In this document: positions 7,033 through 46,778 of the stretch, piece by piece
How the letters are laid out: every line of letters begins with the position of its first letter
Numbering within the stretch: the stretch's first letter is position 1
From: Candidatus Uhrbacteria bacterium
GTDB lineage: Bacteria > Patescibacteriota > Patescibacteriia > UBA9934
DNA: 64,000 nucleotides
Assembly: GCA_943359525.1 (NCBI GenBank)
Contig: CALRHV010000001.1
Location: 7,181 to 71,180 of the forward strand
Direction: 5' to 3'
The notes under the pieces: model-generated
Database searches by the model: none
What the model saw: only the letters and a program-made list of their open reading frames with translations
Told to the model about the DNA's origin: nothing
Made by a program: the position numbers and the translations under genes

Positions 7033-8163
7033 TTAAAGCGATGCGATATTTTCTGCGGCGGTAACAGCGAACTGAATTCCTTGTTGAGTGAGAAGATATG
7101 TTCCGGCGCCAAACATGATTGCAACGTGAACAGCGAGAACACCTGCGAGAATTTTCTGGTGCCTCGTCATTGGTGTTGATTCCGATGGTTCTGATCCCGC
7201 GGTGAGCGTTATAACGCCGCGAATCAAATACACGTTAATGATCGCGAGTGCAAAGAAGACAAGAAGTGCAAGGATAAGGTGTGCTTGAAGTGCATAACCA
7301 ACGCCAATAAGTTCGCTTACAAAAAGCACAGAAAATGGAGCGCCAAGAAGTGACGCGAAGAGCGCGCCAGAAAGATATTTCAGTGTGGTGTTTGATTGAA
7401 CCACTGCAGAGCTTTGTGTGGAGTACCACAGCCCAGAATGCGCAACGGCCTGACCAACAAGATGAATAATTGCAGGGATGGTCCCTGCTGGACCAGCGCC
7501 GATCATGAACGCAACAAGGCCAATGTGCTGAACGCTGGAAATTGATAGAAGCTGTCGTTTCTTTTTAAACACCAATTTCACCACCGCCATCAGTATAATG
7601 AGCGCACCAAAGCCAAGAAAAAAATTGTTCGTCCATACTCCGTCGTCTGCCATCGCTCCGTCGGTAATCTGTTTTACGCGGAGAAGCGCAATGAAGAACA
7701 CCACTGGCGCTGCGCCGCCAACAAAGCTTGTGAAACGCGTTTTCATGAAAAAGATCCCGAATGACGAGAGCGTTGCGACCGCCACCACAATAAATGCCCA
7801 TTGGATATATTGTGACGTGAAGAGCAATGCAGCTCCAATAGTGAAGAGACCAACCGAACCAATGCACAACGCGAGAATTGCCTTCCGTGCTTTTTCGTCT
7901 GCCGCACGCTGGGCGTGAAGCGCGAGGCACGTTGCCGCAAGAACGGCTAGCGCAAATGTCAGTGCAAGAACAGCGATGTTATTAGTGAACGCGGCCGCGA
8001 CAACCGCGACAAGTCCGGCGAAGGTGACGGAAAGTTCAGAACGATGTGCTCGTGCTCCATTGATGGTGAGCGCAAGCGTCCCAACCGCGAGTATTCCAAT
8101 CAACACCAACTGGCACCACACAAGGATGTCAACGTGCCACACAGAAAGGAATGCGTTCAACAT
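7033..8163 (-). CDS. Proton-conducting membrane transporter family (PF00361-like; NuoN/MnhD-like) polytopic membrane protein
   Basis: About 12 TM helices; …SSVQHIGLVAFMIGAG…IIHLVGQAVAHSGLWY… resembles NuoL/M/N core. Confidence 0.5.
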   Translation of the reverse strand: MLNAFLSVWHVDILVWCQLVLIGILAVGTLALTINGARAHRSELSVTFAGLVAVVAAAFTNNIAVLALTFALAVLAATCLALHAQRAADEKARKAILALCIGSVGLFTIGAALLFTSQYIQWAFIVVAVATLSSFGIFFMKTRFTSFVGGAAPVVFFIALLRVKQITDGAMADDGVWTNNFFLGFGALIILMAVVKLVFKKKRQLLSISSVQHIGLVAFMIGAGPAGTIPAIIHLVGQAVAHSGLWYSTQSSAVVQSNTTLKYLSGALFASLLGAPFSVLFVSELIGVGYALQAHLILALLVFFALAIINVYLIRGVITLTAGSEPSESTPMTRHQKILAGVLAVHVAIMFGAGTYLLTQQGIQFAVTAAENIASL

Positions 8164-21805: not shown

Positions 21806-22330
21806 ATGATCTCGATCAACAAGCCAGCACCAAGCTTTGAAAACATCACGTCGTACACCAAGGGCGAGTTTACGAAAACAAGCCTCAGCTCGTACAAAGG
21901 AGGCTGGGTGGTGCTGTTCTTCTACCCTCGCGACTTCACCTTCATCTGTCCAACCGAAATTAAGGGCTTCCAAAAGCACGAAGCGGACTTTGCCGCCCTC
22001 AACGCAAAAGTCATCGGCGCATCCACAGACAGCGAATGGAGCCACAAAGCATGGTTTGAAAAGGATCTCCCTGAAGTGGCCTACCCTATCCTTGCCGACA
22101 CAACGCAAAAAGTTTCCCGCGACTACGGCGTGCTCAACGAAGACGACGGCAGTTCCGATCGCGGCTTGTTTATTATCGATCCAGAAGGTGTAGTGAAATA
22201 CGCCCTAGTCTCTGCCGGCTCCGTCGGCCGATCAGTCAAAGAAGTGCTCCGCGTTCTCACAGCACTTCAATCCGGCGAACTCTGCCCAATGGAATGGGAG
22301 CCGGGCGAGAAAACATTGGGAAAGGCGTAA
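21806..22330 (+). CDS. Typical 2-Cys peroxiredoxin (AhpC/Tsa family)
   Basis: FTFICPTE peroxidatic Cys motif and resolving Cys near C-terminus (GELCPMEW). Confidence 0.92.
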   Translation: MISINKPAPSFENITSYTKGEFTKTSLSSYKGGWVVLFFYPRDFTFICPTEIKGFQKHEADFAALNAKVIGASTDSEWSHKAWFEKDLPEVAYPILADTTQKVSRDYGVLNEDDGSSDRGLFIIDPEGVVKYALVSAGSVGRSVKEVLRVLTALQSGELCPMEWEPGEKTLGKA

Positions 22331-22344
22331 ACGTCACATATCAT

Positions 22345-22383
22345 CAGTAAAAAACTGGAGCCACAACAGGCTCCAGTTTTTTA
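22345..22383. terminator. Bidirectional Rho-independent terminator (prx / relE convergent)
   Basis: aaaaaactggagcc-acaaca-ggctccagtttttt. Confidence 0.8.
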
Positions 22384-22641
22384 CACCGACCGATAGATAT
22401 CGTGATCACCAACAGCAAGAAGGATTATTCCGTCAGTCGATCGTTCAAAAACAATTCTGGTTTTATAGTTTACCGAAAAACTCCACAAGTCATGAAGATT
22501 CCCTTTTAATTTATGTACTTTTAACGTGCTGTGATGTTCGGGGTTGCGAAACATCTCAACCTTCTCATAGACATCTTGTCGAAGATCTTCCGGCAAAGAA
22601 CTCGTCATTTTTATAAATTGCTTCGTAAACTGAATTCGCAT
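22381..22641 (-). CDS. Type II toxin, RelE/ParE superfamily
   Basis: 86 aa; …KVHKLKGNLHDLWSFSVNYKTRIVFERSTDGIILLAVGDHDIY… is the RelE/ParE fold signature. Confidence 0.8.
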   Translation of the reverse strand: MRIQFTKQFIKMTSSLPEDLRQDVYEKVEMFRNPEHHSTLKVHKLKGNLHDLWSFSVNYKTRIVFERSTDGIILLAVGDHDIYRSV

Positions 22642-22644
22642 ACG

Positions 22645-22866
22645 TTATGAAACCGCTTCAACGAGGGCCTTCAGATCTCCTTCGTAAAGCTCACCATTCC
22701 GGGCTTGTCGTTGCGAAATCAACACTGCGTTTAAAGCCTCTTCCTCAGAAAGCCGAATAATCGCTTTTCGCACAACTTCGGCTTTTGTTTCTGCAAAACC
22801 CATCTTTACCAAGCGCTCAATGATATTCTCCAGTGTTGGAGTAAGTGGTACAGAAAGTGTAGACAT
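22645..22866 (-). CDS. Type II antitoxin (RHH/ParD-like), cognate of downstream toxin
   Basis: 73 aa, gene immediately upstream of and 4 nt from toxin; N-terminal beta-strand plus helices. Confidence 0.65.
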   Translation of the reverse strand: MSTLSVPLTPTLENIIERLVKMGFAETKAEVVRKAIIRLSEEEALNAVLISQRQARNGELYEGDLKALVEAVS

Positions 22867-22965
22867 ATAGTAATGTTATGTCATCATATTACATTGCTAA
22901 CACGGTGAAGTCAAACGTGCTCCTCATTTACCTCATCTCCGCCGGCAGGGAGTGCCGATCGGTAA

Positions 22966-23060
22966 AGAAAGCGATGCGTGTACTGACGGCACTTCAATCC
23001 GGCGAACTCTGCCCAATGGAATGAGAACCAGGAGAGAAGACATTAGGAAAGGCGTAAACG
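22966..23060 (+). pseudogene. Diverged duplicate (about 85% identity) of the last about 95 nt of the peroxiredoxin gene, with its stop codon
   Basis: Direct repeat of 22239-22333; translates …VLTALQSGELCPME* vs native …VLRVLTALQSGELCPMEWEPGEKTLGKA*. Confidence 0.8.
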
Positions 23061-23073
23061 AAAACACGGTCAC

Positions 23074-23170
23074 CCCAATTGTTCAGGATGACCGTGCGAG
23101 TGGTCACCCCTATCTTTCGGGATGACGTTGTAAGTGTCACTCCTATTGCGTTGGAGTGACCGTGTTTGCT
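23074..23170. repeat. Array of three consecutive related hairpins (stems cacggtcacc/ggtgaccgtg-like)
   Basis: acacggtcacccc…ggatgaccgtg / gtggtcacccc…gggatgacg / gtgtcactcc…ggagtgaccgtgt; lies in the 3' region of gene 23179..23895. Confidence 0.6.
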
Positions 23171-23178
23171 GCCTTGGC

Positions 23179-23895
23179 CTAGGACTTTTTGGCGTCGATG
23201 GCCTTCTGCAGGGCGGCCAGCCCCTCAAACTTCATAGCCTTGGGTGCCTTCTTCGCTTCGGCCTTTTTGGCGACCGCCTTCTCCTTTTCCTTCGCCATCT
23301 TGATTGCGCGGGCCTCATCGGTGATCTTCTTGGCCTGACCGGCTTCGAGGAACCCGTGACGCACCATGCTTTCGCGGTAGCTCCGGTAGGATCCGGCCAG
23401 CTCGTCATTCTTGGCCATGCAGATCGAGCGCAGGTGCCGCTCGGCCGCTTCGGCATAGGTCTCGACACGCACCCGGTTCTGGGACTGGGACCACCGGACG
23501 ATGAGCACCGGTCGCTTCGTCATCTGGGAATAGTCGAGGAGCTTGCGCGCCTGATTCTCCCCGGAGTCCGAACGCCGTTTCATCTCGTGGTAGGCCTCGG
23601 TCGCGGCGTCGTCCGGCTTGCCGTACTGGCTCAGGATGGCAAATGCCACATCCCAGGCCTCCTTCTCCTTCCCGCCGTCAAGCAGGTCGTAGAAGTGGAA
23701 CGCGAGGTTCCACACGGTGTTGCGGCTGATCGACATACGACGACCGAACTCTGCGCCGAGCTTCTTCTCCGGACAGCAGATGAACCCACGCACAAAGTCG
23801 AAACGGCCGTGATCCTTCCCTTCGCGGGCCTTGAGGTTGGGGTGAATGAGGACGCCGAGCTTGCCGGCGTTGAGGGAGGGCTTATTGTCGGACAT
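23179..23895 (-). CDS. Hypothetical protein with C-terminal Lys/Ala-rich histone-H1-like tail; gene is about 60% GC vs about 50% for the surrounding genes
   Basis: Tail …MAKEKEKAVAKKAEAKKAPKAMKFEGLAALQKAIDAKKS; marked local GC elevation. Confidence 0.55.
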   Translation of the reverse strand: MSDNKPSLNAGKLGVLIHPNLKAREGKDHGRFDFVRGFICCPEKKLGAEFGRRMSISRNTVWNLAFHFYDLLDGGKEKEAWDVAFAILSQYGKPDDAATEAYHEMKRRSDSGENQARKLLDYSQMTKRPVLIVRWSQSQNRVRVETYAEAAERHLRSICMAKNDELAGSYRSYRESMVRHGFLEAGQAKKITDEARAIKMAKEKEKAVAKKAEAKKAPKAMKFEGLAALQKAIDAKKS

Positions 23896-23976
23896 GGTGA
23901 ACTCCGTATCTCTACTGATGAATGGAACGTGACAGGCGGGATATGACCGATTGCCGTTGGAACGGCTTTCAGATCA

Positions 23977-24020
23977 ACAAACTACTATACCACAAAATCA
24001 GCTCCTCGTCAAGTGACGAT
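23977..24020 (-). terminator. Rho-independent terminator downstream of the 841-aa gene
   Basis: 9-bp stem aatcagctc/gagctgatt followed on minus strand by TTTTGTGG. Confidence 0.55.
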
Positions 24021-24076
24021 GAGCTGATTCTTGGCTAATATTAGCTAAAAGTAATGTTAATATATCCTTCAGTTCA

Positions 24077-26602
24077 CTATCGTGCTCGCACCAAACCATC
24101 CAAAAGACGACGATCAAGAGAATCTGCTTTATTACTTTTCCTGAACCAGTCTGCGAATTGATGAATCACAGCCTGCTTCGTCGGACCACGCTGAAGCTGG
24201 ATTTGACGTTGGTATACGCTTAAGGAATCCATAATCCCCTTCAATGCAATCTTCTTGAGAATACGGTGGTTCGCAATAAACTCAAGTCCAGGAATTACAT
24301 CCGGTCTTCCTTCGACATAATTATGTAATTCCATCGTTGAACCCGTCCAATTTTTTGGACGTACCTGTCCTTCCTTATGACGAACCAGGGGTTCAGCAGA
24401 AGCAAAAATTCCATTCCAAATATCTTCGTGACCATGAACAGCGTCACTCGAAAATAATGAAAGCGCATCTGTTTTATTCACATCCGTCCGTATACCAATC
24501 CTATCCCACATCTCCATAAACGAACCGTCCTTCTGTTTTTTTAATAACGGCATCCCCGTATCCGGATCAATACGTAATTTGCATTCTTCTTCCAGAATAA
24601 ACCCATGCTTCTGATTGCGGTTTACATCATGAGAAAGTTTTCGCGCAAAAAGATATTCCCCAATAAACTCTTTCTCCGGGTAAAGTTCTGCAAATCGATT
24701 TTGAATCGTTCCCGAAATACCGTTATCAATCAAAATGATTCGCTGTGCGTTTTCTACACCGAGCCCTCTCAATTGTTCTCGCACAAGATCGTCGCTTGAT
24801 TTCACTGCGGACGCTCGAGATACTGGAATGTATTGAATCCTGTCCGCAGTGAGTCCAGGAAATCGTTCCGGAAAAAGTTTAAGTAATTGTCGTTGAATAA
24901 GAAACATCGCAATAGCGTCTCGACCAAGGCAAAGACTCATAGTTCCCTTTGGGCTCTCAGCCAAGCGTTGCAATGTATGTTCGGCAAACTGAATGACTAA
25001 AGGACCATATTTGTCTCGACTCATTTCATACACTCGCTCGGCAAATGGCCGAAGGGCCTCCGGAGTGATAGTTTTTTTCACGCGATCGAAATATTCATTT
25101 GCACCGCCAGTGAGGTATTCTCGCTGAGTTTGCAGTGCGATATCTGCATACTTCTCAGAATGAATGTCCATTGATTGGAACGCTTTGTTTTGAATCAGCG
25201 CGTTTGGGCGTTTCAGAACTACGCCTTTTGCCCCAATACGCTGCGGAGCCTTTTGGTCGTTTTCTGAATGATCACCAACGTGAACCAGCGCTTCCGGAGC
25301 CACACCAAGTCTCCGGCAGGCTTCTCGAAAAATTGTACCATTTGGATCCTTTGGGGATTTCAACATGCCGTGTTCAGATGACACGATAACCTCATCAAAA
25401 TAGTCAAAAAGTCCAAAGCGTTTCAACAAACGCTCAACAGATTCTTGACTATATGAAAAGTTTGAAATGACCGCGAGCTTTTTTCCACGTGATCGCAAAT
25501 CCTCAAGCGTCGATTTTGCGCCTGGCATTACCACAGCTGTCGCCCCATCCGCTAAGCAGTACACACCTTCAAGCTCTTGAGCCAATGCCCGAATCTGTAC
25601 TGGGTCGATAGGACGCCTTTCGTTCAGCGCAATTTTTTGAATAACAAGCTCGAGAGCATCCACTTGCTTATAGTCTCGCAACGTCTGTTCCCTTCGCAGT
25701 CGAAAATCGTGTAGCACACTATCTCGAAGCTTCCGAAGGTCCTTCTCAGAAATTCCAAAACCCTTTTCACGTAAAAAAGCAGTTGCATCACTATTCATTC
25801 GTTCTTGACGCTCAGCCGAATTGGAGGAGAATTGTACAAGCGTATCGAACATGTCATACGTTACCGCCTTTACTCGCTCACCTGCACGGGCAACATACGG
25901 AAGGATATCTGCGTGCTCCTGAATATTCTGAGGAAACTTTGCTTCACGCAATTCCTGCAGCACTTCGTCACGATCTGTTCTCACTCGCGCCGCGTATCCA
26001 GAAACGGATCGCGCAATATTCATCATTTCTGCGCGATCAATAAACGATCTACGTGGCTGACCATCAGCGCGCATCGGCCATTCAAGACCTTTCATTCCTA
26101 CCGCCTCAAGCTGATGATACGACTCAAGGATATCCCGAATTCGCTCCTTATGATGCTGTACGTGCGCTGGAGTGATGCCATCCAATGTAATAACTCGTTC
26201 ATACGCAACCTTTTTTCGCGCATGAAATGCCTGAAGATCCTCCTCTCGTCCGCGTGCGGGAAAGCACAGCGCAATAATTTCAATGTGCTTTTGTGGCGAT
26301 CCTCTCATTTCCTGAACAACTGCAATAGCTGCTTCGCGCCCAATCGATCCACGCTCTACTGCCACGGACAACGGAACAGAAAATACCGCGAGACTCGTTC
26401 TCTCCTGCAAAAAGCGGGCAACAACAGCTTGCTCACCTTCCATGAGAAACGTATCCATTGATTTTTTCAAACACCGCCGTGATTCCTGCTCAAAGCCACC
26501 TTCCTGCACAACACACTGAACATCCTGAATATGCCGTTCCTTTCGAACAGTTTCACCCTTATTCACTGTCACGATTTTTGAATCAGCAAATCCAATAGCC
26601 AT
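24077..26602 (-). CDS. Large multidomain protein with central HAD-superfamily hydrolase domain flanked by unknown N- (about 230 aa) and C-terminal (about 370 aa) regions
   Basis: HAD motif I VTYDMFDTLV, motif II ISNFS, motif III/IV K…GDHSENDQ. Confidence 0.7.
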   Translation of the reverse strand: MAIGFADSKIVTVNKGETVRKERHIQDVQCVVQEGGFEQESRRCLKKSMDTFLMEGEQAVVARFLQERTSLAVFSVPLSVAVERGSIGREAAIAVVQEMRGSPQKHIEIIALCFPARGREEDLQAFHARKKVAYERVITLDGITPAHVQHHKERIRDILESYHQLEAVGMKGLEWPMRADGQPRRSFIDRAEMMNIARSVSGYAARVRTDRDEVLQELREAKFPQNIQEHADILPYVARAGERVKAVTYDMFDTLVQFSSNSAERQERMNSDATAFLREKGFGISEKDLRKLRDSVLHDFRLRREQTLRDYKQVDALELVIQKIALNERRPIDPVQIRALAQELEGVYCLADGATAVVMPGAKSTLEDLRSRGKKLAVISNFSYSQESVERLLKRFGLFDYFDEVIVSSEHGMLKSPKDPNGTIFREACRRLGVAPEALVHVGDHSENDQKAPQRIGAKGVVLKRPNALIQNKAFQSMDIHSEKYADIALQTQREYLTGGANEYFDRVKKTITPEALRPFAERVYEMSRDKYGPLVIQFAEHTLQRLAESPKGTMSLCLGRDAIAMFLIQRQLLKLFPERFPGLTADRIQYIPVSRASAVKSSDDLVREQLRGLGVENAQRIILIDNGISGTIQNRFAELYPEKEFIGEYLFARKLSHDVNRNQKHGFILEEECKLRIDPDTGMPLLKKQKDGSFMEMWDRIGIRTDVNKTDALSLFSSDAVHGHEDIWNGIFASAEPLVRHKEGQVRPKNWTGSTMELHNYVEGRPDVIPGLEFIANHRILKKIALKGIMDSLSVYQRQIQLQRGPTKQAVIHQFADWFRKSNKADSLDRRLLDGLVRAR

Positions 26603-26604
26603 AC

Positions 26605-29600
26605 CTACACATCGAGAGTCAAAATTTGAGCAATCTCAACTGCGCGATCGATGTCCTCTTGCCTCGTCATATCCGGATGCTCAGAGAGGTACAGAGACAC
26701 GATATCAACGATTTCGTCACGTTCAGTGTCAGTTGCTAACAAGGAAACTCTTTCATTTACAGCGGCGCCGTGCATGGTTCGCGCAACGTCGTACTCAACG
26801 TGGCCAAAGTGCCGCATACGTTCAACTTCTCCAACCATCTTCATGAATGCCTTTTGCTCAGATGCCGGAGTTTTCTGGAAAAGTACCTGCAGTAATTCAA
26901 CCATCATTTCCTGAACTTCTACGGGCTCATCGCCAAACTTTTCCGACACAAATGTGCGAATGGATTTCGCGTTCTTTTCCCTTGATTTCGAACGTCCAAC
27001 TTCAGCCCCCGAAATTGGACTCTCATCTCCAGATTCTGTTCCGCTTTCAACACCAGAAATCACTGGCTCAAATTCAGATCCTCCCGGCGGCAGATCGTCC
27101 CCACCCGGTGGCGGCATGCGAGGTGTCCTTCTCTTCCTTGGCTCCATTGGTGTGCGAACGTTGCCCGGAAGGAACCATGGAACCGCGACTGGTGGGACGT
27201 TCGGGCCGGTTGCAAAGTCAATTTGAGTGACGTGCTGGTTAACACTTTCGCTGATATCGGTGGAGGTGATTCCGGAATGCACTCCTTCGCCCTGTGCTGT
27301 TGCAAGAATATTAAAGTGGTTCACGCCGTGCGCGTCGAAGCCCTTTGAGATTCCGATCTCAGCGTGGTGATACAGCGGAACAACCTTACCGTGTTCAATA
27401 CGGAAGAAGGTCTTGCCGATATCGGAATCCGGATCAATGTGGAACTGACCATGCTGATCACACAGAACCTCAATGACACTATTCTGCGAACCACTGTTCA
27501 TTGTGAGCAAAAGGCGAAGTTTGCGCTCCACAATTTCCTTAGGTGCGTCTTCACTGAGCGCGTCGTGGAAGGAACCATCCGACGTCATATAGCCCGCGGA
27601 CATCACAATCTGGCCGTTTGCATCCAATCCGGTTTCGTTTACTCCACCCCATTCTAATTTCAGCTCGTTCCAATCTGCCCCAAGCCACTTTTGCAGCGCA
27701 TCAGAAAAATGCATTGGTGTGTCATTGTCCATCCAATGGTCGCGATACACTTTTTGCATTGCATGATGACGCAACCAATCCCACGTGCTTTCGGTGCTCG
27801 TCACCGTTGATGACGAATTCACCCACTGATCGGACTCAACAATATTTGCGCTAGCACCTCGCAACGTTGCCTCCGATGCAGCGTCGAGATGACCGAATTC
27901 GTTGATGTGCAATCCCGAAGCAATTGTACGATGATCGGCAACCGACTCAAGAACGTAGCTTCCGTCGGCTTGAGGAACGAGATCGGTTCCCGCTGGGGTG
28001 GTGAACATTCCCCCGCCAATCGTCTCCACATTCGCTGGTCCGACCGCCGCAACAGGCGCATTGTCAAAGTACGCCATAAGTGCTCGTCCAGCACTTGCAA
28101 TAGTCGTGTCTGCTCCCGAAACAAAATGGCTCCAAAGATCATGAACAACCGTTCCAACGACGGCACCAATCACCATCGTCGTTGCGCCACGCTTCAACGC
28201 GACACGATTCGACCACGAAGCAAAAGCGCTATGTTGCTTCTGAACAGCGCTTTCTTTTCCGTACAACGCACCTTCGCTCATCGCGAGTCTTTCATTGAAC
28301 ACCTCAGTGAAATTCCCCATCGCTTCAGCATATCTCGATCGAAGTGCAGCCTTCAGTTGTGCTCGAGCAAGATCGAGATCCATTCGCTCAACCTCGGCTT
28401 CGGCAACGTTTGTATATTTCAGCAAATCAACCTTTTCGCGATCGCTGATGCGAATCCTTGCCTCGATGTCCGCAAGCGCAGACATCGCGTCTCTGTCGTC
28501 AACATCACCACGTAATTCGCGACCGCTCAGGAATCCACGGGCACTTTCCGCGAGCCCCTTTGCACTTTCACGAGCAAGTTCAAACTGCTCCATCTCGGCA
28601 CGCCGAGGCTGAACCGCGCGACCGCTATCCAATTCCTTAATCTCATTCTCAATCGCGTGTCGCTCCATGACATTCCACCACTTGAGGTTTCCCATCTGAT
28701 TGAGCAACTCCGATTTCCTCGCGAGGAGGTCGTCATTCCGCGTTTCCCCACCAAGCGCCATCTGACGCTCATGGAGCGATCGTTCGCGACCCAGTCGGCT
28801 CTTTTCTTTATACGCGCTGTACGCACCAGTCACAACCAAGGACGATCCAGATGATGCGAGCGCAGCAGCACCAGCTTTCACACGTCCGTAAATTCCACCA
28901 ACTACCCAGGCCGTGCCAAGCGCCACAGAAATCTCATTGTGAAACACGTTCAAAACGCCAGAACCAACTCGTGTTGTTGAGCCGTATCGTTGTAATCCGT
29001 CGAGCGCCTTATCGAGAAGATTCCTGTCTCGTTCCGTTCGTGCACCAAGTTTTGCTTTACCGATAACAATTTCAAGATCGATATCGAGATTCGCAATACC
29101 ACCAGCGTGCGCTGCGTGTTGACGAACTTGTTCGGCGAGCTTTTCCAAATTGTCGGCGTACATCACGCCACGGCCCTTTGCGTCGCCAGCGAGTTTGTTG
29201 GCTGCTGCGAAAATCTCATCTTTTCTTGCGTTGAGTTCACCCGCATCCATTTCTGGATTCGTCGCGTACTCACGAACGAGTGCCTCAAGATCCTTTTTGA
29301 CCGCCTTCTCTGCAGCACTGTCGCCAAAGACCTTCTTCTTTTCCGCAGTCTTCCCTTCTCCATGAAGGAATCCATCGTACTCGGTAACAAACCGATCAAC
29401 AACAGCACCGGTTGCTCGGCGATGCGCGTCGCGGTCGAAATTATCGGACGCGTACAGGTTCTTCTCGTTAAGAATCTTGGCGCGCGATCGCGAGATGGCG
29501 ATTTGACGATAGATTTCGTAGCAAATGTTGTGTTTGAAAATCTTTGCAAAAAATCCCGCATCTATTTTTTCAGCGTGCAACGACTCTTCCGCAGTGTCGC

Positions 29601-30099
29601 GAGCCCTATCCTCGACAGCTTCCGAAACATCCACAGCGCCGTATCGTAATTTCAATGGCACCTTTGGAGCCTCGTCATCCTCAAGCTCGGCGACCACTGG
29701 CGTTGGCGGCACTCGTGTTGTACCCGTTGGCACAACCTCGGGACCTTCTGGAACCGGATCCCCGTCAACCGATCCAATCAACCGCGCGGCAATCTCCACG
29801 CGCTCAAGATCAAGCGAGGCAATGGAACGGTGAAGTTTTCCGTTCTCAATGAGCACCGGAGCTTCGTCGTCGCCCTTGCTGACAGCAACAATTTTCCAGT
29901 CTTCGCCGTCGAGATGAATAATGTCGTTCTTTCCAATGCGCCGCGCAAAACGTGCCTGTGCCTCCGCGCTGGCTTCTGCAGATTGATTGTAGTCTGTCCA
30001 TCCTGCGTGGACCGCCTTCAAGACGCGATCCAACATACTCATCGTTGGTCGCGATTCTCTGGACGATTCTGGCGAATGAGATCGTGCTGGTGCAACCAT
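26605..30099 (-). CDS. Giant hypothetical protein (1164 aa), coiled-coil-rich N-terminal half, one predicted TM segment mid-protein, Pro/Gly/Ser-rich linker near C-terminus
   Basis: Long uninterrupted ORF, 2 nt from downstream gene; no recognisable catalytic motifs. Confidence 0.6.
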   Translation of the reverse strand: MVAPARSHSPESSRESRPTMSMLDRVLKAVHAGWTDYNQSAEASAEAQARFARRIGKNDIIHLDGEDWKIVAVSKGDDEAPVLIENGKLHRSIASLDLERVEIAARLIGSVDGDPVPEGPEVVPTGTTRVPPTPVVAELEDDEAPKVPLKLRYGAVDVSEAVEDRARDTAEESLHAEKIDAGFFAKIFKHNICYEIYRQIAISRSRAKILNEKNLYASDNFDRDAHRRATGAVVDRFVTEYDGFLHGEGKTAEKKKVFGDSAAEKAVKKDLEALVREYATNPEMDAGELNARKDEIFAAANKLAGDAKGRGVMYADNLEKLAEQVRQHAAHAGGIANLDIDLEIVIGKAKLGARTERDRNLLDKALDGLQRYGSTTRVGSGVLNVFHNEISVALGTAWVVGGIYGRVKAGAAALASSGSSLVVTGAYSAYKEKSRLGRERSLHERQMALGGETRNDDLLARKSELLNQMGNLKWWNVMERHAIENEIKELDSGRAVQPRRAEMEQFELARESAKGLAESARGFLSGRELRGDVDDRDAMSALADIEARIRISDREKVDLLKYTNVAEAEVERMDLDLARAQLKAALRSRYAEAMGNFTEVFNERLAMSEGALYGKESAVQKQHSAFASWSNRVALKRGATTMVIGAVVGTVVHDLWSHFVSGADTTIASAGRALMAYFDNAPVAAVGPANVETIGGGMFTTPAGTDLVPQADGSYVLESVADHRTIASGLHINEFGHLDAASEATLRGASANIVESDQWVNSSSTVTSTESTWDWLRHHAMQKVYRDHWMDNDTPMHFSDALQKWLGADWNELKLEWGGVNETGLDANGQIVMSAGYMTSDGSFHDALSEDAPKEIVERKLRLLLTMNSGSQNSVIEVLCDQHGQFHIDPDSDIGKTFFRIEHGKVVPLYHHAEIGISKGFDAHGVNHFNILATAQGEGVHSGITSTDISESVNQHVTQIDFATGPNVPPVAVPWFLPGNVRTPMEPRKRRTPRMPPPGGDDLPPGGSEFEPVISGVESGTESGDESPISGAEVGRSKSREKNAKSIRTFVSEKFGDEPVEVQEMMVELLQVLFQKTPASEQKAFMKMVGEVERMRHFGHVEYDVARTMHGAAVNERVSLLATDTERDEIVDIVSLYLSEHPDMTRQEDIDRAVEIAQILTLDV

Positions 30100-30103
30100 A
30101 CGA

Positions 30104-30403
30104 TTAGCTTAAGTATGACGTACGGAAATCCATGAGCGTTCGTGCGAGCACTTCTTGGTAGTTTGGCACATTGCTGACGAAAAACTCGCGAACAATATCC
30201 GGTTCAGCATCCGCATCAAGGAGATCGTTCAGCTCCTCAACCTTGTCTGTTTCGAGCAAGGCAACCATTTCTGCGTTCAAACGTTCGCCGATACGCGTGA
30301 GAAGATCCGCACGAAGCTCGGCAAGAACCGCCTCGTCAACCGATGCAAGCCCACGTTCCACGAGCAAATTTTCTACGAACTGTTCAAGCGTTGGAGCTGC
30401 CAT
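30104..30403 (-). CDS. Small acidic all-helical hypothetical protein, first gene of the giant-protein operon
   Basis: About 100 aa, pI acidic (…LNDLLDADAEPDIVREFF…), 4-nt gap to giant ORF. Confidence 0.45.
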   Translation of the reverse strand: MAAPTLEQFVENLLVERGLASVDEAVLAELRADLLTRIGERLNAEMVALLETDKVEELNDLLDADAEPDIVREFFVSNVPNYQEVLARTLMDFRTSYLS

Positions 30404-30481
30404 AGCAAAAAGCAAAGAGTATTGCTTCAAGTATAACAAATGCACACCTCATCGATGTGATGAGGTGTGCATGGTTCCGGT

Positions 30482-32543: not shown

Positions 32544-33977
32544 CTAATAGCTCCGCGCAAACACAACGCGTTGATTCGATGGCTTTCCTGAGAATACGCA
32601 GGTTCCCGATGAGGAAGCCTCGGAGAATGGAATACAGCGGATCGTCGCGTTCGTTGCCTCCTTAATCTTCTTTTCATCGTCCGCATCGCCAGACCAATGT
32701 GCGGTCACAAACTTTCCAACCTCGATCGCGGTTACGAATTCGTCCCATGTAGAAACACCCACCGAGTTCGATTCACGGTGCGCGAGCGCACGATCGAAGA
32801 GATTCTTCTGGATCGTGACCATGAGATCGGAGACTATTGCTGCAGCATCGCCGATCGCCACACGAGACTTTTCACTGGTATCACGACGCGCAATGACAAC
32901 CTCGCCAGCCGCGATATCCTTCGGCCCGATCTCAACACGGACAGGAATCCCCTTCTTCTCCCAGTGAAAAATCTTCTCGCCAGGACGACCGTCGCGAGTA
33001 TCAATCTTGCCTCGAACGCCAGCAGCCTGGAGCTCGGCGAGCAATGCGTTCGCCTTTTCCATAACCGGTGCGCGCTCCTCGTCCTTGAACCACAATGGAA
33101 TAATGATCGCCTGAACCGATGCAACCTTCGGCGGAAGAACGAGACCCTGATCATCAGAGTGCGTCATGATCAGTCCACCGATCATGCGTGTTGAAACACC
33201 CCAGCTTGTCTGCCACGCAAGTTGTTCGACATTATTTTCGTCGCTAAATTTTACGTTGAATGCTTTTGCGAAATTCTGTCCAAGGTTGTGCGAGGTGCCG
33301 AATTGCAACGCTTTGCCGTCCTGCATCATCGCTTCGACACAATATGTGCGGAGCGCACCGGCAAATCGCTCGCTGTCAGACTTTTGCCCAGGGATCACCG
33401 GAACCGCCATCACGTTCTCGGCAAAGTCCACGTAGATATCGAGCATCTTTCGCGCAAACGCGTCAGCCTCGTCGTGGGTTGCGTGAACCGTGTGCCCTTC
33501 CTGCCACAAGAATTCTGTCGTCCGAAGGAACAAGCGCGTTCGCATCTCCCAGCGCACCACATTTGCCCACTGGTTGATGAGCAGAGGAAGATCGCGATAC
33601 GAATGGATCCAACCGCTGAACACTTCGTACATGATGGTTTCCGATGTTGGACGGACAACCAACGGTTCGTCGAGCTTCTTTCCGCCAGCATGTGTAACAA
33701 CAGCAACTTCTGGCGCGAATCCTTCGACGTGTTCAGCTTCACGACTCAAAAAACTCTGTGGAATAAATAATGGGAAATAGGCATTCTCAACGCCAATGGC
33801 TTTAAAGCGAGCATCAAGATCCTTTTGGATCATCTCCCAAATGGCATAGCCGTGCGGCTTAATAATCATGCAGCCCTTCACCGGCGAATGCTCGGCCATG
33901 TCTGCGGCAGAGATCACGTCGAGGTACCACTGGCTGTAATCTTCAGCACGAGGAGTGATGCGAGTATTGGAAGCCAT
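32544..33977 (-). CDS. proS: Proline--tRNA ligase, archaeal/eukaryotic-type (class IIa, no editing insertion)
   Basis: 477 aa, class II motifs (…FRTTEFLWQEGHT…, GGLIMTHSDD), C-terminal Zn-binding-like domain …NATIRCIPFSEASSSGTCVFSG…. Confidence 0.9.
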   Translation of the reverse strand: MASNTRITPRAEDYSQWYLDVISAADMAEHSPVKGCMIIKPHGYAIWEMIQKDLDARFKAIGVENAYFPLFIPQSFLSREAEHVEGFAPEVAVVTHAGGKKLDEPLVVRPTSETIMYEVFSGWIHSYRDLPLLINQWANVVRWEMRTRLFLRTTEFLWQEGHTVHATHDEADAFARKMLDIYVDFAENVMAVPVIPGQKSDSERFAGALRTYCVEAMMQDGKALQFGTSHNLGQNFAKAFNVKFSDENNVEQLAWQTSWGVSTRMIGGLIMTHSDDQGLVLPPKVASVQAIIIPLWFKDEERAPVMEKANALLAELQAAGVRGKIDTRDGRPGEKIFHWEKKGIPVRVEIGPKDIAAGEVVIARRDTSEKSRVAIGDAAAIVSDLMVTIQKNLFDRALAHRESNSVGVSTWDEFVTAIEVGKFVTAHWSGDADDEKKIKEATNATIRCIPFSEASSSGTCVFSGKPSNQRVVFARSY

Positions 33978-44274: not shown

Positions 44275-45210
44275 CTATCTCACTGCCGGGTAGAGATCTG
44301 GATCGATGGTTCGCTCGAAGCACGTTCGGCCAACGCCATGTGTCCAATTCTCATCGAAACGATTGTAGCCATCGTAATACGGTATCGCCTTGATAACGCT
44401 ACTGCCGTTGCTCACCGATTCGGCTTCGAATGTTGCACACAGTTCAAACGTTAATGGAGATTTCACGGTGTATTCGAACGCGGCGCCACCGTTTGGATCT
44501 ACCGGCACGGAATACCCGATCAACGAGTTCGTGAGGTCTTCTAACTTTGCAGGAAGTGCTTGCTTAATGGAGTAATAGTTCGTGATCTGACTTTGGATGG
44601 TCGAGAGCTGCGATACACGCTGATCATCGAACCGCACCTTGCGCTGCTGTGCTGGTGAACCAACAAGGAGGAAACCGAGAACGATCATCGCAGCAACCAC
44701 GATCGATGCGGCGATCGCCGTCTTCTTTGGAACCGTGGACTTCCCGAGAGATTCTGTGCGCAAGTCCCAGAAGTAATACGCGAACACGGCAGCGGCCGTT
44801 GCGAGGACGACAAAAATCTTGAGGATGAATCGTGTCGTGATTTCACCGTTCAAGAAGTAGTTCACCAAGGTGATGAGATCGACGACAATCGTAATTGCCG
44901 TCACGAAAAGTGTGAGATAGAGCAACCACTTGCGAATACCAATCTCGCGCTTCTCGGAATCTGCTTTTGCGTCCTTGTGCATGAACCACGAAATTCCCAC
45001 GAACGCTGGCCACATCACAATGAGGCTTGCCATGCCACCACGAATCGCATCGAGTGCGCCGGTGTAGTAGAAGCTCAACGCATCAGGAAACGTGACGTCG
45101 ATGTACTGAAAACCGAGGATGATGAATGACACAACGGAGACGTACAGCGTCACAATAGCGAACAAATGCGAGAACACGTCTCTTGCCGTTGAGCGTGGAA
45201 GTGCCTTCAT
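44275..45210 (-). CDS. Hypothetical membrane protein (about 5 TM helices in N-terminal half, extracytoplasmic C-terminal domain)
   Basis: Hydropathy pattern; no motif recognised. Confidence 0.5.
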   Translation of the reverse strand: MKALPRSTARDVFSHLFAIVTLYVSVVSFIILGFQYIDVTFPDALSFYYTGALDAIRGGMASLIVMWPAFVGISWFMHKDAKADSEKREIGIRKWLLYLTLFVTAITIVVDLITLVNYFLNGEITTRFILKIFVVLATAAAVFAYYFWDLRTESLGKSTVPKKTAIAASIVVAAMIVLGFLLVGSPAQQRKVRFDDQRVSQLSTIQSQITNYYSIKQALPAKLEDLTNSLIGYSVPVDPNGGAAFEYTVKSPLTFELCATFEAESVSNGSSVIKAIPYYDGYNRFDENWTHGVGRTCFERTIDPDLYPAVR

Positions 45211-45695: not shown

Positions 45696-46778
45696 TTATT
45701 CCCCCGTTACCACCGTAAATGTCATTCGCCCGAGGACCTGCCCCGTCGTCGTCTCCACGCTTACACGCCACTTTCCTGCGGCCAAGGAAGAGACCATGGA
45801 GTAGCCACGGTAGCCGTCTGGTCTGCCGCCGCTGATCTGAAATGGAAGCTCGTGCTCCGTTTCCCAGCGATGCGCGTCGGTATCGTATCGTTGCCATACG
45901 TGAACAATTGTGGCCGTGAGATCATCGGGAGCATAAATCGCCGTGTACGCGTAAAGCGCGTCGCCGGGAGTGACGAGAATCGTTTCACCAAAAAAGAGTG
46001 TATCGAGCCAGGATTCTTCCGGTGTAACGAGAACGTAATCCGACGTCACACTGTACGCCATCGTTGCGTCGCGGAGCGCGAGAGGAATCGGCGGAATAAT
46101 GTTCAAGAAGTAACACGTGTTCATGAACACAAACACGCCGGCGATAACAAGCCACATTCGTACACGATCCTTGTACAGATCACCGAGATTGATGAGAAGC
46201 GCCAACAGCAACGTCATCACAATCATGCTCGCCAAACCTCCAGCTAAAAACACCGGCCAGCTCAAGGATGCGAAGAGGTGCGCGAACCAAATTGCGAACA
46301 ACGAGAACAATGCAAAATACAGCATGCCAATCTGTACTAGCGGTCGAAGAACAATGTGCCGAAGTGTTTCGTTCGAGATCATGAGTATCGCCACAAGCGC
46401 GATCAGCGGCCACGTCACGGAAAACGTTCCGCTAAACCAGTAGAACAACAATGCGGTGCTGAGCAGTCCTCCCATCGCAAACTGCTGTGCGAACGGCGCA
46501 ACGAGCTTGATGTAGCGTAACTTTGGCACTTCTTCGGCGCGTTTGTACGCGGTAAGCGCCATTGATCCCATTACCACCGCAACGTACACGCTCATAACAA
46601 TAAACTTCTCACGCAAATCCAACACACGGAACTGCCACACATCAAACGCAGTTCCCATTAAAAGCATCGTCGGCATGAACCATCGTTCATATCGACTCAA
46701 AAATTCACGAACTCGCTTATATGTTTGCAACGCTTGCCGCGACCCCAAAATCATAGAAGTATGCGCTGAGCATACCAT
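45696..46778 (-). CDS. Hypothetical membrane protein (about 7 TM helices plus C-terminal beta-rich soluble domain)
   Basis: Hydropathy; C-terminal domain …TATIVHVWQRYDTDAHRWETEHELPFQISGGRPDGYRGYSMVSSLAAGKWRVSVETTTGQVLGRMTF…. Confidence 0.5.
   Translation of the reverse strand: MVCSAHTSMILGSRQALQTYKRVREFLSRYERWFMPTMLLMGTAFDVWQFRVLDLREKFIVMSVYVAVVMGSMALTAYKRAEEVPKLRYIKLVAPFAQQFAMGGLLSTALLFYWFSGTFSVTWPLIALVAILMISNETLRHIVLRPLVQIGMLYFALFSLFAIWFAHLFASLSWPVFLAGGLASMIVMTLLLALLINLGDLYKDRVRMWLVIAGVFVFMNTCYFLNIIPPIPLALRDATMAYSVTSDYVLVTPEESWLDTLFFGETILVTPGDALYAYTAIYAPDDLTATIVHVWQRYDTDAHRWETEHELPFQISGGRPDGYRGYSMVSSLAAGKWRVSVETTTGQVLGRMTFTVVTGE

Follow-up and report, generated by a model that had tools for sequence, protein, structure and literature searches.

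In a 64,000-nucleotide stretch of Candidatus Uhrbacteria contig CALRHV010000001.1 (assembly GCA_943359525.1, forward-strand positions 7,181 to 71,180; hereafter the window, numbered from its first letter), we describe a three-gene module made up of a small acidic DUF5663 protein (gene 1), a giant protein with a conserved core of ~985 residues (gene 2), and an exchangeable enzymatic "head" that follows a disordered Pro-rich linker. Most relatives have as their head a GT2-like or GT9 glycosyltransferase fused to the giant protein itself; in the window the head is split off, the giant protein ends in a short tail of SG-x-E repeats and helical sequence, and a stand-alone enzyme, related to dual-domain ribofuranosyltransferases, is encoded next (gene 3). 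Our leading interpretation, held tentatively and with not quite even confidence, is that a conserved scaffold, probably associated with the membrane, positions a glycosyltransferase that varies from strain to strain and decorates an acceptor in the cell envelope. We favor it because the heads are mostly glycosyltransferases, because the locus behaves like a serotype locus, and because its logic parallels that of Klebsiella O-antigen synthesis. The arrangement is best called a variant of modular scaffold-plus-glycosyltransferase systems, with a real chance that it is something further from known systems.

The three open reading frames (ORFs) were verified as co-directional on the minus strand, with gene 1 at 30104..30403, gene 2 at 26605..30099 (1164 aa), and gene 3 at 24077..26602 (841 aa), separated by gaps of 4 nt and 2 nt, respectively. 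An earlier note, written from the letters of the window alone, had proposed just such a row, in which an acidic protein of chaperone size is followed by a giant protein with no recognized domain and then by an enzyme, and the ORFs, the gaps, and the isoelectric point (pI) of 4.1 for the gene 1 protein bear it out. The same note took the operon as a whole to be accessory or horizontally acquired, a view that does not survive comparison with relatives: the DUF5663 gene and the core are syntenic in all of them, and genes 1 and 2 are a conserved syntenic pair rather than accessory material. The region itself is also present as an identical copy in the NCBI metagenome-assembled genome (MAG) assembly GCA_964685005.1, and the relatives carry the labels Candidatus Uhrbacteria or Patescibacteria.

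The conserved core of gene 2 (aa 1-985; 27145..30099, minus strand) comprises a small N-terminal beta domain, helical regions, three hydrophobic segments, and a beta-rich domain at aa ~690-960, and homologues of the big protein align across aa ~40-990 only. An exhaustive profile search recovered 961 clusters at 50% identity with E <= 1e-3, 556 of them with E <= 1e-30, making this a very large Patescibacteria family whose members range in length from ~760 to 2066 aa. Neither the big protein nor any of its sub-regions matched Pfam, NCBIfam, PADLOC, or PHROGs, a sequence search of the PDB with the big protein gave no match, and the core shows no detectable similarity to any solved structure. In the AlphaFold model the core contains long helices modeled with moderate confidence only (pLDDT 61), which leaves the coiled-coil-rich N-terminal half suggested in the earlier note plausible rather than demonstrated. 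Where that note saw a single hydrophobic segment near aa 640, we find three moderately hydrophobic ones (aa ~382-400, 409-430, and 633-660) at positions conserved across the family; all are marginal, with Kyte-Doolittle 19-residue means of ~1.15-1.4, and 94 of 160 members reach 1.6. In the big protein we found neither a signal peptide nor a motif for anchoring to the wall. Judged by sequence divergence, the core evolves fast relative to its flanks: against the closest genome (locus L003), the pepA, ProRS, ahpC, rsmI, and DUF5663 products are 94-96% identical (the DUF5663 protein 96%), compared with 59% for the core.

Gene 1 encodes a helical protein of 99 aa from its ATG and invariably accompanies the big gene as its upstream neighbor. 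It passes the threshold for Pfam DUF5663 (PF18908; 29.4 bits against a gathering threshold of 23.7, model positions 1-81 of 84), and precomputed annotation of identical and related genes gives the same family. Searching the PDB with the DUF5663 profile returned chance-level matches only, such as trigger factor at E 0.02, and no paper on DUF5663 turned up in our literature search. We examined the pairing in 33 distant loci from metagenomes and 7 loci from GTDB genomes. Wherever the contig extends for at least ~300 nt ahead of the big gene, as it does in 27 of the distant metagenome loci, the ORF directly upstream is DUF5663-like and has the same orientation; exceptions are confined to genes truncated at the end of a contig. 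In relatives with long contigs the gene order is ProRS or another aminoacyl-tRNA synthetase (aaRS), a small ORF, pepA, the DUF5663 gene, the big gene, a variable stretch, ahpC, a DUF3179 gene, rsmI, and MetRS. The earlier note had called for a check of neighborhood conservation, and pepA upstream and ahpC-DUF3179-rsmI downstream are indeed found in all such syntenic relatives, with the distant loci keeping the DUF5663 pair alone. Because these distant loci lack the pepA/ahpC context and still have the pair, it is the DUF5663-core pairing itself that is conserved, and the pair represents an undescribed family. In one locus (L011, 12793-19569) the module is followed by an 882-aa protein, another DUF5663 gene that has diverged further, a gene of 147 aa, a VirD4/TraG-like protein (DUF8128), and a Y1 transposase; given this second copy, DUF5663 proteins may partner other large proteins as well.

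In contrast to the core, the C-terminal parts that lie behind the disordered, low-complexity Pro/Gly-rich linker fall into unrelated classes. Among ~152 tails, 110 (~72%) carry a GT2-like GT-A domain with an NDAD motif and 17 (~11%) a GT9 domain, and the remainder include a six-member class of unknown type, the six-member class found in the window (class C), and several singletons. A Ser/Thr-kinase-like domain is added in some long tails (6 of 33), and in L003 a GT2-like module is present as a separate downstream gene. Tail and core histories disagree, with L013 and P0016 sharing cores that are 88% identical and bearing unrelated tails, and class switches also separate the close cores of P0011 and P0016 (77%) and of the window and P0001 (81%). 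The class C tail of the window (aa 986-1164, 179 aa; 26605..27144, minus strand) has a Pro-rich linker and, at aa 1015-1026 (nt 27022-27057), SG-x-E repeats, together with a basic stretch and an acidic helical domain of ~130 aa (pI 5.0) with low model confidence. In the loci compared, this type of tail is found only where a ribofuranosyltransferase gene follows. The Pro/Gly/Ser acidic linker recognized in the earlier note is present.

The exchange also has defined edges. DNA homology between the window and loci L057 and L016 ends at 27172 (codon 976 of gene 2) and resumes at the 3' end of ahpC (22331), and these breakpoints delimit a replaceable cassette of 4.8 kb (22332..27171), one edge of which is intragenic and falls at the interdomain linker. 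Within it lie the class C tail, the ribofuranosyltransferase gene, a 238-aa gene, a decayed ahpC 3' fragment, and a RelE-type toxin-antitoxin pair. The earlier note's impression of compositional heterogeneity holds for this region (GC content is 42.6% at 24001-25000 and 58.0% at 23001-24000, against ~47-55% elsewhere), and what can be called exchangeable is the segment 22332-27171, from codon 976 to ahpC, and not the module as a whole.

Gene 3 is, on the strength of sequence and structural-model comparisons, a divergent dual-domain ribofuranosyltransferase homologue whose predicted catalytic motifs are intact. The earlier note had described a HAD phosphatase domain lying between two unassignable domains. 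The HAD-type phosphatase domain is clear (aa 244-470; 25193..25873, minus strand; PF00702, E 2e-20) and is of the PRP/CrpP kind, with motifs that are invariant in our alignment A2: motif I, D250-M-F-D253-T254; motif II, S380; motif III, K415; and motif IV, G443-D444...D449. Motif I therefore reads differently from the DxDxT previously given, and aligns with "DIFDT" in both 7SHG, a polysaccharide ribofuranosyltransferase of Thermobacillus composti, and Bcs3 of Haemophilus influenzae. In the CrpP domain of Bcs3, motif I keeps only the first Asp of DxD, the nucleophile D386 (PMC10299916). The C-terminal domain (aa 480-841 plus stop; 24077..25165, minus strand) can in fact be assigned, as a gPRT/CriT-like phosphoribosyltransferase domain, through motif alignment to Bcs3 and 7SHG. 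Residues R561-D562, S595-R596, and D626...G631-T632-I-Q align with Bcs3 R679-D680, S707-R708, and E818 plus the phosphate loop 821-825, all of which bind phosphoribosyl pyrophosphate (PRPP) in that enzyme (PMC10299916), and the last of these elements also aligns with "VDVGWKGTIQ" of 7SHG. Among the counterparts of the active-site residues, S595 alone is not conserved in the distant homologue P0024, and the position of Bcs3 S678 is a Gly in gene 3. Since the C-terminal domain can be assigned to the gPRT/CriT type and is joined to the HAD domain, gene 3 is placed with the dual-domain ribofuranosyltransferases.

Profile and fold searches agree on this placement. A profile of six homologues had 7SHG as its best PDB match (E 5e-23, in two stretches, one within the HAD domain and one within the gPRT domain) and also matched Bcs3 residues 385-868, that is, CrpP plus CriT, at E 3e-12; with the C-terminal domain alone, 7SHG was the sole PDB match below E 0.01 (E 0.006), a weak but specific hit. 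The AlphaFold model of gene 3 (pLDDT 79) gave 7SHG as its top Foldseek match (E 5e-13, 685 aligned columns), followed by the Bcs3 chains (E 5e-12 to 3e-10), with all single-domain HADs ranking below both; the TM-scores are low (0.26/0.37) because the orientation of the domains differs. The remaining, N-terminal domain (aa 1-240; 25883..26602, minus strand) is helical and basic (pI 8.0), with residues 36-210 modeled at pLDDT ~85, and here the earlier description stands, in that Pfam, NCBIfam, PADLOC, and PHROGs returned no match; these four collections gave none for the C-terminal domain either. All five close homologues (P0019-P0023) have the N-terminal domain, and P0024 lacks it. Close homologues are rare, with only five found among 5.8 billion proteins searched, and a second search with the transferase alignment added a single distant GT2+HAD protein.

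The class C tail and the transferase travel together. In L009, L011, and L013 a transferase gene follows a DUF5663 gene and a big gene with a class C tail, and across five lineages and two genomic contexts, of which L011 represents the different one, the transferase gene occurs only behind class C tails, at distances from ~15 nt down to a 1-nt overlap. All six class C tails contain SG-x-E repeats, compared with none of 95 other tails, and they also share the basic stretch and the acidic helical domain (pI 5.0), in contrast to the basic N-terminal domain of the transferase. When we compared the class C tail and the transferase N-terminal domain with the other tail classes and with each other using hhalign, no relationship emerged (probabilities <1%). 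This strict co-occurrence suggests that the tail may recruit the separately encoded enzyme, or that the repeats may be its acceptor, and the N-terminal domain of the transferase is a candidate docking domain for the class C tail.

The boundaries of the module are marked by hairpins, whose folding energies were scored against shuffled controls (z). Upstream, after pepA, a hairpin at 30440..30472 on the minus strand has a 14-bp stem followed by UUUGUU (dG -25.1 kcal/mol, z -5.7) and forms the upstream unit boundary; a TATACT -10-like hexamer comes after it, ~26 nt ahead of the ATG at 30403. A GTG start for gene 1 at 30445 is unlikely because it lies inside this hairpin, behind the pepA stop. The unit is closed by a second hairpin on the same strand (23989..24035; dG -28 kcal/mol, z -6.5), whose extended stem has a UUUU run on its 3' side immediately after the core stem; the earlier note had placed a terminator near 23980-24020. 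This hairpin overlaps the promoter-like site of the next gene (TTGACG-17-TGgTATAGT), and a third hairpin at 23097-23064 (dG -23.3, z -5.3) stands behind that gene, a 238-aa ORF. The simplest reading of the bracketing hairpins is a three-gene transcription unit. No paralogues of the three genes were found elsewhere in the window.

How such a module might work can be outlined from homology. The core would probably be held at the membrane by its conserved, weakly hydrophobic helices, where it would supply or position a common acceptor, either a cell-envelope glycoconjugate or a protein, and the head would determine which sugar is added. In the window, gene 3 is predicted to transfer ribofuranose-5-phosphate from PRPP to an acceptor hydroxyl, after which its HAD domain would remove the 5-phosphate to leave beta-ribofuranose. 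Characterized enzymes of this kind are cytoplasmic and move beta-Ribf-5-P from PRPP before dephosphorylating it (PMC11127046). Replacement of the cassette at a fixed locus would then give each strain its own surface chemistry, much as serotype loci do.

The closest points of comparison are the dual-domain ribofuranosyltransferases themselves, namely 7SHG, the enzymes of Klebsiella O4 and O7, and CrpP-CriT of H. influenzae Bcs3 (PDB 8A0C/8A0M). Gene 3 shares with them the order of HAD phosphatase then phosphoribosyltransferase, the D-x-F-D-T form of motif I, motifs II-IV, and the R-D, S-R, and D/E...G-T-I-Q elements, and they are its best PDB matches in both sequence and fold, yet identity is only ~13-15%, and the likeness comes from sequence and model. 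Gene 3 differs in its extra 240-aa N-terminal helical domain, in its Patescibacteria host, and in its surroundings: it is not part of a polysaccharide cluster, has pepA, ProRS, ahpC, DUF3179, and rsmI as neighbors, and is encoded behind, and co-varies with, a giant protein that is not a glycosyltransferase. Only in L011 are PMT_2-type and GT4 genes found near the module, and this difference is one of context rather than of structure. For the giant protein the nearest counterparts are the coiled-coil scaffolds of O-antigen synthesis (WbdD of Escherichia coli O9a, WbbB of Klebsiella O12, and the coiled-coil protein of Klebsiella O7, which works with a stand-alone ribofuranosyltransferase), with which it would share the logic of an elongated, membrane-associated, helix-rich protein. 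In the Klebsiella O-antigen systems, glycosyltransferase modules are either fused to the C-terminus of the scaffold or supplied as a stand-alone ribofuranosyltransferase (PMC11231755), and among the scaffolds generally such modules, joined in WbdD by a kinase, are fused at one end or recruited separately, their distribution varying by serotype (PMC11231755). The parallel is one of analogy only: neither sequence nor fold similarity to these scaffolds was detected, the window module has no ABC transporter or other glycan genes nearby, and the scaffolds in turn have no counterpart of its conserved beta-rich domain or of its obligatory DUF5663 partner. With variable surface-glycan loci (O-antigen and capsule serotype loci, and glycosyltransferase variation in wall teichoic acid) the module shares conserved housekeeping flanks, low-GC replaceable glycosyltransferase content, sharp breakpoints, and far higher divergence inside the locus than in its flanks; it departs from them in that its slot accommodates no whole pathway but one or two enzymes, and in that one breakpoint lies within a gene, at an interdomain linker.

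On balance, then, a scaffold that positions exchangeable glycosyltransferases is supported by the conserved flanks, the low-GC replaceable interior, the sharp breakpoints, and the divergence typical of variable surface loci, as well as by the cupin/mannose-6-phosphate-isomerase-type gene that occupies the slot in L015. Several observations weigh on the other side. Neither in the window nor in syntenic relatives is there an initiating transferase, Wzx/Wzy, an ABC transporter, or a flippase beside the module, and a single transferase cannot build a polymer. The core has no detectable similarity to WbdD, WbbB, or solved structures, and the confidence of its model is moderate, as noted above. Were all three hydrophobic segments to span the membrane, the head would be placed outside, away from PRPP and nucleotide sugars. 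The proposed docking between tail and N-terminal domain draws on co-occurrence and opposite charge only, and the Ser/Thr-kinase-like domains in some heads, together with the N-terminal J-domain of one relative (P0005), fit a glycan role loosely. We consider it less probable, though still deserving some weight, that the DUF5663 protein and the core make up an undescribed Patescibacteria-wide machine that carries interchangeable heads (GT2, GT9, PRPP-dependent ribofuranosyltransferase, and kinases) on a flexible linker and acts on targets outside classical polysaccharide pathways. Such a target could be the SG-x-E repeats of the protein itself, through protein O-ribofuranosylation, or some component of the cell on which an episymbiont lives. 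If so, the locus would diversify rapidly and determine partner specificity or phage/host recognition.

Two further explanations strike us as unlikely, to much the same degree. One is that the big protein is an effector delivered into the host cell of the episymbiont, with DUF5663 as its chaperone, a hydrophobic hairpin that inserts in the host membrane, and exchangeable heads that modify host targets with host PRPP, UDP-sugars, or ATP. The ever-adjacent small acidic partner, the lack of a signal peptide combined with heads that need cytoplasmic donors, the fast evolution of the core relative to its flanks, the bilobed hydrophobic segment, and the J-domain of P0005 are all in keeping with it, as is the VirD4-like coupling protein that adjoins the second DUF5663 gene of L011, orphan VirD4 homologues being common in Patescibacteria (PMC12102498). 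Against it, the VirD4-like gene is restricted to L011/L012, and no coupling or secretion gene occurs near the module in the other loci or among the window ORFs examined. Moreover, gene 3 is a separate polypeptide without an export signal and would therefore need a delivery route of its own, its known relatives act in the cytoplasm of the producer on that cell's own glycans (PMC11127046), and 83% of the heads are ordinary GT2 or GT9 types. The other is that the big protein is the substrate, a structural protein of the surface or envelope whose Ser-rich linker receives sugar from its own head or from the transferase encoded next to it and for which DUF5663 serves as an assembly chaperone. The tie of the SG-x-E repeats to the ribofuranosyltransferase-associated tail class is strict (6/6 vs 0/95), the linkers are disordered and of low complexity, glycan-assembly neighbors are absent, and divergence is fast, as in exposed proteins; yet no known gPRT acts on a protein, the characterized ones acting on glycans, the other tail classes have no Ser-rich repeats, and the protein has neither a signal peptide nor a wall-anchor motif.

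A polymorphic toxin locus, with a conserved N-terminal delivery region, variable C-terminal toxins, and downstream immunity genes, is far less probable still. The resemblance to Rhs, CDI, and MafB-type systems lies in the conserved N-terminal region, the disordered linker, the swappable C-terminus with its sharp recombination breakpoints, and the variable downstream genes with a toxin-antitoxin pair nearby. Unlike those systems, this family has glycosyltransferases as its heads (~72% of tails belong to one GT2-like family and 11% to GT9, and no nuclease, deaminase, peptidase, or pore-forming domain was found), no secretion-system domains, and no cognate immunity gene. A convergent ahpC comes straight after the big gene in L005, L016, and L057, with no ORF between them and no room for an immunity gene; the product of gene 3, a transferase of 841 aa whose catalytic motifs are intact, is no immunity protein, and PADLOC gave no matches. 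The likeness to toxin-delivery, effector, or S-layer systems drawn in the earlier note found no support, with no toxin-type domains, no space for immunity genes in relatives, no phage or defense matches, and a linkage to secretion systems confined, among the loci compared, to L011/L012. We give hardly any credence to the possibility that gene 3 is an unrelated metabolic phosphatase whose tight spacing is fortuitous: Pfam and NCBIfam by themselves do show only a generic HAD-IA domain, but the gPRT domain has conserved catalytic residues, and across five lineages and two genomic contexts the gene is confined to positions behind big genes that have a class C tail, the spacing ranging from a ~15-nt gap to a 1-nt overlap. 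Defense-system and prophage- or plasmid-cargo readings were set aside after PADLOC and PHROGs gave no matches and tblastn found no match for the core in phages or for the gPRT domain in plasmids, and an S-layer or cell-division complex was rejected, no support for it having been found. Nor did remote-homology searches place all three proteins in a housekeeping pathway, the core and the DUF5663 protein having no functional assignment.

A large part of bacterial diversity belongs to the Patescibacteria, a group in which most lineage-specific proteins lack an assigned role. The present analysis ties an orphan Pfam family, DUF5663, to an unannotated family of giant proteins with ~1000 clusters at 50% identity, and identifies that family as a carrier of exchangeable glycosyltransferase modules with a defined recombination joint. 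It also points to an apparent PRPP-dependent ribofuranosyltransferase in Patescibacteria, such enzymes having been characterized so far only in O-antigen and capsule synthesis. The enzyme, the candidate docking pair, and the candidate acceptor motif offer a testable handle on surface variation in ultrasmall episymbionts, which is relevant to host attachment and phage pressure.

The 238-aa protein (23179..23895, minus strand), which has a Lys/Ala-rich C-terminus and no match in Pfam, NCBIfam, PADLOC, or PHROGs, has a 64%-identical homologue right after the transferase gene in L013/L014; because it accompanies the transferase gene there and not in L009/L011, we regard it as a cassette passenger. 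Its ORF has a good promoter-like site, and the gene publicly annotated in its place, an antisense 270-aa ORF rich in Leu, Gly, and Arg (23134..23946, plus strand), is probably a shadow ORF. Behind the 238-aa gene, at 23068-23135, a tandem 34-nt duplication (76% identity) takes in one arm of the terminator hairpin. A RelE/YoeB/ParE-like toxin of 86 aa (22381..22641, minus strand) has a RelE-like homologue at the same place in L013/L014 and is preceded, with a 3-nt gap, by a candidate antitoxin of 73 aa (22645..22866, minus strand). The pair sits between the copies of a 130-nt direct repeat (22204-22333 and 22931-23060), the second of which is a decayed duplicate of the ahpC 3' end (80% identity, with an in-frame stop), and this second copy marks an older cassette/ahpC junction. 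Elsewhere the slot is filled differently: behind the GT9-tailed big gene of L015 (5046-7984) it holds a 171-aa gene, the cupin/mannose-6-phosphate-isomerase-type gene, and a 652-aa gene on the opposite strand, and the module of L003 (10001-17060), in which an N-terminal DnaJ J-domain precedes the 59%-identical core and a fused GT2-like tail, is accompanied by genes of 113 aa (opposite strand) and 131 aa and by a 392-aa stand-alone GT2-like gene.

Several observations on the surrounding genes may also be recorded. Two MAG records titled "uncultured Gammaproteobacteria bacterium" (L020 and L023) share the Uhrbacteria-type synteny and the module, and their taxonomic labels are probably wrong. The window has, at 32544-33977, a ProRS of the kind also seen in L003 and L005 (477-517 aa, with a ProRS-C_1 domain), and in L007, L009, L016, and L057 its syntenic position is taken by a class II aaRS of 415-417 aa that is ~22% identical. 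The sampled remainder of the window is core genome, with genes for MreB, a UvrD/PD-(D/E)XK helicase-nuclease, an Mrp-type antiporter subunit, an ABC-F protein, and a histidine kinase, and at 44275-45210 and 45696-46778 it carries further orphan families typical of Patescibacteria, DUF5671 and DUF2914.

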